Below, one piece after another: positions 57,201-60,200 of a DNA stretch of 64,000 nt. A program made the position numbers. Each line of letters starts with the position of its first letter. The first letter of the stretch is position 1. Source of the DNA: Escherichia coli (GTDB taxonomy: Bacteria; Pseudomonadota; Gammaproteobacteria; Enterobacterales; Enterobacteriaceae); NCBI RefSeq assembly GCF_024502345.1, contig NZ_JALDNN010000001.1. One strand, given 5' to 3'.

Positions 57201-60200
57201 ATTCACGCCAAATTTTCCTTATTGAGCAACGTCGTCGCAAGTGGCCTCAATGATTTTAGACCATTATCAGAGATGCGGGGCGGTGGGGAGAGATTTAGTG
57301 ATGTGGAATATTGTGGTGCTGATGAATATTTATATCGCGGATTGGTAGAGAAAAAGGTTATTTCATGCACTATTTTTGCAAAGATTTCTATTTGGGAAGC
57401 GTGTTTGTTACGGGGTAATTCATCAGAATGTGCATTTGGGGTGTTGGCTGGAAGAGTCGCTGGTAGATGTTATTGTGGCAGGAGGGGCAGGGTAAGGTGC
57501 TGTATCGATATGCTTTGGCAATTGCGTGTGCCGCAGATGGAGATGAAATGCCAATAAAAAAGCCTGAGTTCGATGAGGGACGAACTCAGGCTAGTGTTAT
57601 GTTTTACAGTAACACGCCGCGGCGCGTTGGCTGATTAGAACTGGTAGACGATACCAACTGCAAACTGGTCATCAGCTGCTGCGCCAGTAATGGCGGCGTC
57701 ATCTTTATCCAGCATGTTGAATTTGTATGCAGTATAAACGTTCATGTTCTTATTAAAGTAGTACCAGGTACCAACTTCAATGTAGTTCACACGGTCAGCG
57801 TCAACATATCTATGTCCAGGTACCCCTTTGATATCTTTACCTTTAGAGTACACATAACCTAAGGACGGACGCAGACCAAAGTCGAATTGATACTGAACAA
57901 CCGCTTCAAAGTTCTGGGTTTCATTGATAAGTTGATCACGCATTATTGTATTGCCTTCTCGATCGGCAACACCTGTATCAATAGAACCCGGAGTCATATT
58001 ACGAGTTTCGCCGTACATTACAGCTGCGTAGACATTGTTCGCGTCATACTTTGCAGCCAATGACCACAGTTCAGCATTTGAACCGTTTCCATCGGCAACT
58101 TGATCGTTGGTGCGATCAGATTTGCTATATGCACCAACGATACCAAAACCATTGATGTTATAGTCTACAGACAACGCATAGCCGTCACCATTTTGTTTCT
58201 TAGTGCTACGGTTGCTGTTTTTGCCTTGGTACTGAATCGCAAAATCAAGACCATCAACCAGGCCAAAGAAATCATAGTTACGGTAGGTTGCAACACCGTT
58301 GGTACGACCATTCATGAAGTTGTCAGCGGAAGCCCAGGAATCGCCACCCCATTCAACTAACATATCGGTATAAGCTGCGGCATCATAAGCAACACCGTAG
58401 TTACGGCCATAGTCAAATGATCCTAACTCGTTATATTTCAAACCGGCGAAGGTTAAACGGGTTTTTTCCTGGTTTTCACCTTCGGGCTTGCTGGCGTCGA
58501 GATTGTATTCAAACTGACCAAAACCAGTCAGTTCGCTGGTGATTTGGGTTTCACCTTTAACACCGAAACGAGCATAGGAGGTATCTTCGTTTTCGCTGTT
58601 ATTATCATCAGTATTTGACCAGATGCGTTCGCCAACCATCTTGCCGTAGAAATCAACTTTATTGCCATCTTTATTGTAAATTTCAGCCGCATTTGCTGCG
58701 CCAGCAACTAATAACGCCGGGACCAGCATTGCCAGAACTTTTCTTTTCATTATGTATTCCCTTGTGATTATAATCTTCATGAATATATCAATAAGTGCCG
58801 TTATCCAAAAAAAAGCACATTTGGATACTATTCTATGAAGTTCATTTTATTTTAAAGATTACATGTAACAAATGTATTTAAAAGATTTCAAAATGTTTCT
58901 AATCTATTTAATATAATTTAGAATTATGAATTCTAAATATAAATATTCATGAAAATTATAAATGTATATCAATATGTTATGAGTTGAGCGGAAGCATAGG
59001 GGGTATCAATGATTGTTGCGCCAAACGGCTGGTGTGATCACGCGCACATTAATGAAGGCATAAAAAAAAGCCGGCATCATGCCGGCCCAAAAAATATAAA
59101 CAAGACGATAAAAGGCTAATAACGGAGGCATCATGACACAGAAAAATAAAAAGGTATAATTGTATTCAGTGCTAATATATTGATTAAATGAATTAATAAA
59201 GCCGATCTCAAAGATAAATAAAATCGCTCAAAACGATTTTTCCTGTATTCACTGCCGTTGCGCAAAAATTATCTATTTGTTCAAAAAATGAGTGAGTCTT
59301 GACTGGCTCATCCAATGTGGAAAAATGTGACTTTTATCACATAATAGTACTAAGTCTGAATTTTCCGGGTTATCTCAAAATGGAATACGGTTCGACAAAG
59401 ATGGAAGAGAGACTCTCTCGCAGCCCTGGTGGCAAACTGGCTTTGTGGGCTTTCTATACATGGTGTGGCTATTTCGTCTGGGCAATGGCGCGTTACATCT
59501 GGGTGATGAGCCGGATCCCCGATGCCCCCGTGTCGGGATTTGAAAGCGATTTAGGCTCTACCGCGGGAAAGTGGTTAGGGGCACTGGTCGGATTTTTATT
59601 TATGGCTCTGGTCGGGGCATTGTTAGGCAGCATTGCCTGGTACACCCGACCTCGTCCCGCACGTAGCAGACGCTATGAATAAAAACTGCTAAGGTGGCGA
59701 CTCTTTGGCAACGGAGCGCGTATGGACTTACAGCACTGGCAGGCACAGTTCGAAAACTGGTTGAAAAACCATCATCAGCACCAGGACGCGGCCCATGACG
59801 TGTGTCATTTTCGCCGCGTCTGGGCTACGGCACAGAAGCTGGCGGCAGATGACGATGTCGATATGCTGGTGATTTTAACCGCCTGTTATTTTCACGATAT
59901 TGTGAGCCTGGCGAAAAATCATCCGCAAAGGCAGCGTTCTTCAATCCTGGCGGCAGAAGAGACGCGTCGCCTGCTCCGTGAAGAGTTCGAGCAATTTCCG
60001 GCGGAGAAAATCGAGGCCGTTTGTCATGCCATTGCCGCTCACAGTTTCAGCGCGCAAATCGCCCCCTTAACAACGGAAGCTAAAATTGTCCAGGATGCGG
60101 ATCGGCTGGAAGCCCTGGGGGCGATTGGCCTGGCGCGCGTGTTTGCCGTTTCAGGGGCATTGGGCGTGGCGCTGTTTGATGGTGAAGATCCGTTCGCACA

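Follow-up and report, generated by a model that had tools for sequence, protein, structure and literature searches.

A 64-kb stretch of Escherichia coli DNA (64,000 nucleotides, here called the window) carries on its minus strand an uninterrupted porin frame of 371 codons closed by TAA at 57635–57637, and the features of the gene and its surroundings are collected in Table 1. The porin sits between hchA and rseX/drpB within the order hprRS-hchA-porin-rseX-drpB-yedJ-dcm-vsr, which is the order of K-12, where the same position is taken by the yedS pseudogene. The small-RNA gene rseX lies directly upstream in the same orientation, and K-12 is annotated with it at the same place. In the ORF list of the window, the enclosing frame (58780 to 57635, minus strand) amounts to 381 amino acids when counted from its first ATG. 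We prefer the ATG at 58750, because AAGGGA stands 7 nt upstream, all homologues begin with MKRK, and the RefSeq annotation has an identical 1116-nt CDS with the 371-residue start; the 381-residue version was set aside, as its ATG at 58780 has no ribosome-binding site. RefSeq entry WP_000824355.1, present in strains NCTC9082 and M10, is the same protein residue for residue.

Table 1. Features of the porin gene and its upstream region in the window.
Feature	Position	Strand	Basis
Porin intrinsic terminator, 12-bp stem then TTTTTATT	57561–57592	minus	Terminator scan; 43 nt past the stop codon
Porin CDS, class A of the hchA-drpB locus	57635–58750	minus	ORF, Pfam, RefSeq identity
14-residue surface-loop extension, residues 255–268	57947–57988	minus	Absent from sister allele A' and the other porins compared
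L3 constriction motif LVEWGGD, residues 131–137	58340–58360	minus	Aligns to PEFGGD of OmpF/OmpC; VEWGGD identical in OmpK35
Signal-peptide coding part (21 residues), cleavage after ANA	58688–58750	minus	Aligns with OmpC, OmpF and OmpN signal peptides
Predicted RybB 5'-end pairing site, codons 2–7	58730–58747	minus	RNAduplex −18.0 kcal/mol, z −2.9
Shine-Dalgarno AAGGGA	58758–58763	minus	7 nt before ATG at 58750, read off the sequence
AT-rich promoter region, 18.5% G+C	58780–58979	minus	Composition; probable H-NS/StpA silencing target
8-bp inverted repeat TATCCAAA/TTTGGATA, 10-nt spacer	58802–58827		52–77 nt upstream of ATG
Perfect 10-bp inverted repeat ATTTAGAATT/AATTCTAAAT, 3-nt spacer	58916–58938		Repeat search
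Candidate CRP-type site TGTGATCACGCGCACA	59033–59048		One mismatch to TGTGA-N6-TCACA
rseX small-RNA gene and terminator	59063–59152	minus	Rfam RF01401, 96.7 bits vs gathering score 50

The gene encodes a general-diffusion porin of the OmpF/OmpC/PhoE superfamily (PF00267). The Pfam Porin_1 profile is matched from end to end (396 bits, residues 27–371 against positions 1–337 of 337), and OmpK35 chain 9hn1_A aligns over the whole length (residues 1–371 against 2–360, 486 bits) with mostly short indels, the largest being 13 residues in the L6 region. The sequence-only reading had described a full-length porin with a signal peptide and a C-terminal beta-barrel motif, leaving its strand unstated. 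That description holds: the frame is complete, an A-x-A signal peptide aligns with those of OmpC, OmpF and OmpN, and the protein ends in VYQF, the terminal Phe of which is a barrel-assembly signal. The accompanying label of OmpC family is correct in the broad superfamily sense, but the protein is nearer to OmpK35 and OmpF than to OmpC, as judged from the NCBIfam scores, the 9hn1_A alignment and the Foldseek search. None of the three specific NCBIfam models was reached, the scores being 450 against a cut-off of 583 for OmpF (NF007446), 417 against 484 for OmpC (NF007841) and 414 against 599 for PhoE (NF007544). Identity amounts to 61% with OmpF and 57% with OmpC.

The AlphaFold2 model (pLDDT 80, pTM 0.77) places beta strands all along the chain and short helices at residues 122–125 and 137–144, within the L3 region, and its best Foldseek matches in the PDB are OmpK35 (target TM 0.88) and OmpF (0.85). 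As modelled, the protein is a 16-stranded beta-barrel in which loop 3 bends inward into the lumen. Among solved structures, OmpK35 (PDB 9hn1, 5o77) and OmpF are the best matches in both sequence and fold; the VEWGGD constriction motif is common to OmpK35 and the window porin, and the basic residues facing L3 have been kept. In the numbering that we take to be that of OmpF, the equivalents of K16, R42, R82, R132, D113 and E117 are all kept in the protein alignment, together with the terminal YQF. The 14-residue extension belongs to what we take to be loop L6 by OmpF topology, and this loop is longer in the window porin than in OmpK35 or OmpF. The OmpK35/OmpF-type matches in Klebsiella and other genera (at most 65% identity) lie at another locus, with neither drpB nor yedJ nearby.

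Nearer relatives are found among the drpB-adjacent porins of Enterobacter, Citrobacter, Atlantibacter, Kosakonia, Leclercia, the Klebsiella oxytoca group and Raoultella, at about 65–78% identity by tblastn; no characterized member was found among them. Where flanking DNA is present, yedJ adjoins these genes and mostly drpB does too, in divergent orientation, and the MKRKVLA start of the signal peptide is common to them and the window porin. Downstream they have tRNA genes, whereas hchA-hprSR follows at the window locus. On sequence grounds, the lineage of the window porin would be the orthologue of the drpB-adjacent porin in other Enterobacteriaceae. No rseX was detected in their syntenic loci at the Rfam gathering score; it was found only in Escherichia.

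Within E. coli, the porin in the hchA-drpB slot belongs to one of at least three deeply divergent lineages, here called A (the window porin, with sister allele A'), B and C (the K-12 type). All three have an identical signal peptide and a near-identical promoter region, 5' UTR and terminator (90–100% for the promoter region at 58780–58979, 98–100% for the terminator). The flanks are mostly 90–100% identical across classes, and identity falls to 10–85% in the mature coding part. The lineages are as divergent as paralogues, with 56–68% identity (67% between mature A and B) and saturated synonymous divergence (dS 1.5–1.9 between classes), and one comes from a different porin clade: in a neighbour-joining tree, midpoint-rooted and without bootstrap support, classes A, A' and B join the syntenic porins from other genera, and OmpN/OmpC are the neighbours of class C. 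ST131 carries class A and Nissle 1917 carries class B; both are presumably phylogroup B2, so allele class does not track phylogroup. At a coverage of at least 80%, lineage A/A' was counted in 1623 of 5426 complete E. coli genomes (~30%), a rough figure, class frequencies having been estimated by megablast coverage counts and from evenly spaced rows. No description of this multi-lineage pattern is apparent in the searched papers that mention yedS.

The statement in the sequence-only reading that yedS is a pseudogene in K-12 agrees with the annotation of NZ_CP010439 ('frameshifted; internal stop') and NC_000913.3 ('pseudogene yedS b4496'); the lesions are a TAG at codon 162 and a 1-nt deletion at codon 221. 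Lineage C has decayed in O157:H7 as well as in K-12, and strain 2017.20.01CC has a truncated gene at the locus. Of the 14 other strains sampled there, 11 have an intact gene. It is in the K-12 and O157:H7 lines that the gene is a pseudogene; K-12 is the exception, and intactness is not unusual.

By position the window porin counts as YedS/OmpS1, gene order and regulatory region being conserved, whereas by its sequence it falls outside the K-12-type (OmpN/OmpC-like) YedS/OmpS1. The two types differ in length (371 against 395–404 amino acids), in loop 4 (short in the window porin, with a long glycine-rich insert in the K-12 type) and in the L3 motif (VEWGGD against PEFGGD). Once repaired, K-12 YedS is 71% identical to OmpN, and the best 120 matches in a search with it were all K-12-type proteins of 393–405 amino acids at 86% identity or more. 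Salmonella OmpS1 is equated with K-12-type YedS in the literature; no Salmonella locus was among the best 80 matches of one contig scan with the window protein.

Upstream of the gene, the sequence-only reading had pointed to an AT-rich region with short palindromes. This is confirmed by composition, 58780–58979 having the lowest G+C of any 200-bp stretch in the window, and by the inverted repeats listed in Table 1, with one further palindrome being of CRP type. The repeat at 58802–58827 could form a hairpin if it lies inside the 5' UTR. CRP motifs are not enriched in the window (3 found against 2.1 expected), and the site at 59033 alone is not above chance. It is given weight solely on account of its K-12 counterpart (ggTGTGAtcaggcGCACAtta at 2033766, assigned to yedS), for which in vitro CRP binding has an estimated Kd of 4.9 nM (PMC12871828, Table 1). 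Published regulatory data from K-12 and Salmonella carry over only through the near-identical promoter, 5' UTR and signal-peptide region in E. coli. In K-12, loss of H-NS/StpA derepresses RseX 'and surrounding areas', and rseX is undetectable in the wild type (PMC8313858); in Salmonella, H-NS/StpA keep ompS1 quiescent and LeuO lifts this silencing (PMC4264507). By analogy, H-NS/StpA silencing of the porin promoter is probable. Within the AT-rich tract, sigma-70 promoter hexamers occur no more often than in shuffled sequence (9 found against 7.3 expected), and thus no transcription start is proposed. For OmpR boxes, a small and crude weight matrix derived from six K-12 boxes, all confirmed to be exact substrings, gave a best upstream score of 7.5 bits against 7.0 ± 1.7 in shuffles.

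RybB is a sigma-E-dependent small RNA that represses omp mRNAs. Its predicted duplex at codons 2–7 is of moderate quality, 1.3% of shuffles being equally good (p 0.013), and it compares with −17.5 kcal/mol at the same position in ompN, −19.3 in ompC and −19.5 in ompF. K-12 yedS mRNA drops 2.5-fold upon sigma-E induction (PMC2731931). Direct pairing with MicF was considered but found no support: the duplex with the porin 5' region (−80 to +45) is weak and not extended (−10.2 kcal/mol, z +0.66), although the ompF positive control worked (−27.1 kcal/mol, z −4.8). The MicF seed pairs strongly with ompF but finds no partner in this 5' region, so a MicF effect as reported for YedS lacks an evident direct target in the window gene. 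Duplexes of MicA, MicC and full-length RseX with the porin 5' region were no better than those of shuffles.

If the window gene were K-12 yedS kept intact, as had been supposed from the sequence alone, knowledge of functional yedS alleles would apply directly, and position, orientation, signal peptide and 5' UTR are indeed identical, with the AT-rich promoter and the terminator nearly so. However, alignment with K-12 yedS and its intact alleles, which had been suggested as a check, places a deeply diverged protein of the same superfamily between these flanks: the mature part is about 56–59% identical to intact class C proteins, with dS of about 1.5–1.7 (saturated), repaired K-12 YedS stands at 61% over the whole protein, the same as OmpF, and class A falls in another part of the tree than class C. 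Moreover, truly intact K-12-type genes exist, with 395–404 amino acids and 85–97.5% nucleotide identity to K-12 yedS, and they are distinct from the window gene; the names given to them are 'porin OmpC', 'outer membrane protein yedS' or 'outer membrane protein S1'. At the level of sequence, identity with K-12 yedS is already contradicted, and we give it very little credence. A recent import from another enterobacterial genus, displacing the native yedS in the lineage of this strain, would agree with the higher mature identity to porins of Citrobacter braakii, Atlantibacter hermannii and Enterobacter cloacae (76–80%) than to class B or class C, with a divergence that stops sharply at the signal peptide and the stop codon, and with the independence of allele class from phylogroup. 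Yet no close donor emerges, the best non-Escherichia match reaching 78% of amino acids with saturated dS, and the lineage is widespread in Escherichia, with, beyond E. coli, a relative in E. fergusonii at 82% and E. marmotae within the 90% cluster. Given this wide spread and the lack of a close donor, any import would be old, and a recent one is improbable.

It could also be argued that the gene is intact but cryptic, a permanently silenced relic that has no function today and is heading for the pseudogene state seen in K-12. The extreme AT-richness of the promoter, the undetectable neighbouring rseX in wild-type K-12 (PMC8313858), the independent decay of lineage C in K-12 and O157:H7, and the truncation in strain 2017.20.01CC would all fit such a fate. 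Several observations argue otherwise: dN/dS is about 0.08 within class A (dN 0.004, dS 0.052) and about 0.13–0.23 between classes, pore-lining and folding residues are conserved, the exact protein (WP_000824355.1) occurs on at least 1000 contigs, and most of the other strains sampled have the gene intact. Quiescent porins can also matter in vivo, as Salmonella ompS1 mutants are attenuated in mice (PMC4264507), and surface proteomics of an O26:H11 strain detected a porin said to be ~50% similar to K-12 YedS (PMC9731836). We hold permanent silencing to be an unlikely account of the gene.

The reading that we favour, and regard as quite probable as a whole, is that of a functional lineage A general-diffusion porin in a multi-lineage slot. 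Function is deduced from the integrity of the sequence, purifying selection and fold. Its Sec signal peptide would direct export and its C-terminal Phe signal insertion into the outer membrane, giving a predicted trimeric 16-stranded channel for small hydrophilic solutes, with a constriction like that of OmpK35. The slot would hold one of at least three very old lineages behind a common promoter, 5' UTR, signal peptide and terminator. In laboratory culture, the gene is probably near-silent through H-NS/StpA acting on the AT-rich promoter, like rseX and Salmonella ompS1, and CRP may modulate it. Under envelope stress, RybB pairing at codons 2–7 may shut the porin off post-transcriptionally. Upon expression, especially where OmpF and OmpC are lost, it could provide an extra entry path for small hydrophilic solutes, including beta-lactams. 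It is tempting to go further and view the slot as a long-lived, multi-allelic porin cassette in which recombination swaps lineages while balancing or frequency-dependent selection by phages, colicins or host immunity keeps each at about 20–30%; this we offer tentatively, as an idea with somewhat less than even chances.

A link between yedS and carbapenem permeability, raised in the sequence-only reading, rests on a single study, that of Warner et al. 2013. In that study, an isolate deficient in OmpC and OmpF reportedly took up carbapenems through YedS, whose level was lowered by way of MarA and MicF. For the window porin a role in carbapenem entry is plausible, as a candidate only. A spare OmpK35-like porin, carried by some 30% of complete E. 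coli genomes, ST131 included, would be a candidate entry point for beta-lactams in cells that have lost OmpF and OmpC. Conclusions drawn from a single allele, such as carbapenem entry, need to be checked before they are transferred to another, as the label 'yedS' spans at least three unrelated-looking porins; the overall importance of this is modest. RefSeq names the K-12-type proteins 'ompC' and the other classes simply 'porin', and consequently many genomes seem to carry two ompC genes. Finally, the sharp edge between conserved flanks and a diverged mature coding region makes the locus a tidy case of allele replacement in a surface protein.

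The sequence-only reading had described an intact, full-length porin, and an open frame indeed runs on the minus strand of the window from 58780 to 57635, within which the 371-codon protein matches Pfam Porin_1 end to end (396 bits). Chance does not account for an open frame of 1.1 kb that matches the family profile over its full length, and the observation is thus confirmed. The window gene was checked against functional porins for an internal deletion or a frameshift, and neither was found. Translation is sensibly placed at ATG 58750, which is preceded by a Shine-Dalgarno sequence; an alternative ATG at 58780 has no AAGGGA-like site upstream. 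The locus features are collected in the following table.

Features of the porin locus, with positions in the window
Feature	Position	Strand	Remarks
Porin terminator	57592-57561	minus	12-bp stem followed by TTTTTATT, 43 nt past the stop codon
Porin CDS	start ATG 58750	minus	371 codons + TAA; biologically sensible start
Shine-Dalgarno	58758-58763	minus	AAGGGA, 7 nt 5' of ATG 58750
AT-rich region	58780-58979		18.5% G+C; most AT-rich 200 bp of the 64-kb window
CRP-type palindrome	59033-59048		TGTGATCACGCGCACA
rseX	59063-59152	minus	Rfam, 96.7 bits
Near-consensus sigma-70 promoter	59133-59160	plus	ATGACA-16-TATAAT (11/12 positions); antisense inside rseX, toward drpB
Perfect CRP consensus	59326-59341		TGTGACTTTTATCACA, just 5' of the RefSeq drpB start

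The protein aligns end to end with the solved OmpK35 chain 9hn1_A, with indels mostly of 1-2 residues and the largest (13 residues) in the L6 region. The two share the VEWGGD constriction motif, and the basic residues facing it are conserved in the window protein. An AlphaFold2 model (pLDDT 80, pTM 0.77) shows a beta-barrel whose L3 region has short helices; among PDB structures it matches OmpK35 (target TM 0.88) and OmpF (0.85) best. Every testable feature of the classical porin superfamily was found, and the window gene is a member. The RefSeq name is merely 'porin' because the score falls under the NCBIfam cut-offs for OmpF, OmpC, and PhoE.

The name yedS, which had been proposed for this gene, holds by chromosomal position but not by sequence. 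The porin is flanked by hprR-hprS-hchA and, at its other end, by rseX-drpB(yedR)-yedJ-dcm-vsr, as is K-12 yedS. The latter had been described as a pseudogene, and both its annotation and its lesions agree: relative to the intact allele of strain PD4 (97.5% identical), codon 162 has changed from CAG to TAG and one nucleotide is deleted at codon 221. However, the window protein is only 61% identical to K-12 YedS with these lesions undone, the same value as for OmpF, and 59%, 58%, and 57% identical to PhoE, OmpN, and OmpC, respectively. For K-12 YedS, identity is 71% with OmpN and 68% with OmpC. The window gene is 'yedS' by position only and, judged on sequence, is none of the K-12/OmpS1-type, OmpF, OmpC, or PhoE porins. 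The NCBI pipeline labels the K-12-type gene of this slot 'porin OmpC'/ompC in RefSeq E. coli genomes, intact or pseudogene, so many of these genomes have two genes called ompC.

In a scan of one genome per species, the closest non-Escherichia relatives among the matches listed (about 65-78% identity) were from Atlantibacter, Enterobacter, Citrobacter, Kosakonia, Phytobacter, Leclercia, the Klebsiella oxytoca group, Raoultella, and Silvania; where flanking DNA was present they adjoin yedJ and mostly drpB also. Weaker OmpK35/OmpF-like matches (<=65%) lie at other loci, away from drpB/yedJ. rseX was found at Escherichia loci only and not at the syntenic loci of the other genera. In a midpoint-rooted neighbor-joining tree of mature proteins, without bootstrap, the locus lineages A, A', and B (listed below) fall within the drpB-adjacent clade of other genera and class C groups with OmpN/OmpC. 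From this tree and the drpB/yedJ adjacency, the window gene is, by sequence, the orthologue of the porin that occupies this slot across the family, and the K-12-type YedS is a porin of another kind that has the same signal peptide.

Porin allele lineages at the hchA-drpB locus
Class	Strains	Length	State	Remarks
A	window, NCTC9082, M10, ST131	371 aa	intact
A'	GF54	357 aa	intact	90% identical to A; mosaic, 5' part near-identical to A
B	Nissle 1917, 52148	352 aa	intact	68% identical to A
C	K-12, O157:H7	about 396 aa	pseudogene
C	PD4, SLDY13, DEF10, CAVP761, MS 124-1, 19KM1863	392-404 aa	intact

WP_000824355.1 of NCTC9082 and M10 is identical to the window protein, and the ST131 protein is 99.2% identical. 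A protein alignment places a 14-residue extension of class A tentatively in loop 6. In the mature region, dN is 0.004 and dS 0.052 within class A; between classes, dS is saturated (1.5-1.9) and dN/dS is about 0.13-0.23. In a sliding comparison of all classes, identity is mostly 90-100% from drpB across rseX, the AT-rich promoter, and the 5' UTR to the signal peptide, and likewise from the stop codon onward; in the mature coding part it drops to 10-85%. It is of some interest that three porin lineages with paralogue-level divergence occupy one locus behind a single shared regulatory and signal-peptide module. Against window 57640-58510, GF54 is almost identical over the first ~240 nt of the gene and then diverges increasingly, to 54-63% in places, plus an indel; this pattern suggests a mosaic from recombination within the gene.

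Within the otherwise conserved hchA-porin spacer, whose plus strand is strongly G-rich (GC skew up to +0.54), a ~50-100-bp segment at window 57390-57490 is only 74-84% identical between strains; the annotation of this locus includes a hypothetical protein in some RefSeq records. drpB carries a pseudogene flag in strain 52148 (internal stop, 571-852 of the extracted locus) and in O157:H7 strain PV15-279 (frameshift, 571-851).

Among 5426 complete E. coli genomes, the class A CDS is present at >=80% coverage in 1623 and K-12 yedS in 1662; the Nissle-type gene is estimated in roughly 1100-1200, leaving out class A' matches at 74% identity. The exact window protein occurs on at least 1000 contigs, under the names 'porin', 'outer membrane pore protein F', and 'Outer membrane protein N', and intact K-12-type proteins are abundant too. 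The locus gene was intact in 11/14 other strains individually inspected and truncated in strain 2017.20.01CC. The exception is K-12, with its broken gene, rather than the window. That clinical isolates of E. coli can have yedS in intact and active form was reported in 2013 (Warner et al., as cited in PMC4048246). The observation is correct and its significance ordinary. An identical porin with an hchA fragment (99% identity) is also found on JAIJJM010000575.1 (2136 bp), binned as a 'Collinsella sp.' MAG, which almost certainly reflects contamination of that bin by E. coli.

The AT-rich upstream region and the palindromes noted from the sequence alone are both present, one of the latter being the CRP-type site (first table), whose K-12 counterpart was bound in vitro by CRP (estimated Kd 4.9 nM; PMC12871828). 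In K-12 hns/stpA mutants, rseX 'and surrounding areas' are derepressed (PMC8313858). The Salmonella porin gene ompS1, with which yedS has been equated (PMC2731931), is quiescent under silencing by H-NS/StpA, which LeuO relieves (PMC4264507), and sigma-E induction lowers K-12 yedS mRNA 2.5-fold (PMC2731931). It is by analogy that we infer how the window porin may be regulated. For the RybB 5' seed, pairing is predicted at codons 2-7 (-18.0 kcal/mol, z -2.9), positioned as in ompN and about as strong as for ompC and ompF; these codons belong to a 50-nt block identical in all alleles compared. For MicF, MicA, MicC, and RseX, no pairing with the porin 5' region exceeded shuffles; the positive controls MicF-ompF and MicC-ompC worked. 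A crude six-site OmpR matrix gave no significant score upstream of the porin. The K-12 '(yedR)' counterpart of the perfect CRP consensus near drpB has an estimated Kd of 1.9 nM by Footprint-seq (PMC12871828). If the sigma-70 promoter inside rseX is active, drpB and rseX transcription would overlap head-on.

Elsewhere in the window, the RNA features at 8540-8663, 10960-11034, and 26189-47274 are a leader of the histidine operon, the sRNA STnc240, four 73-nt tRNA genes, and an 87-nt tRNA, as would be expected if the window is the his-to-yedI part of the E. coli chromosome. The four 73-nt genes score identically; two matching M10 loci are annotated tRNA-Asn and tRNA-Ser. The best complete-genome matches to the window reach only 98-98.7% identity over 25 kb.
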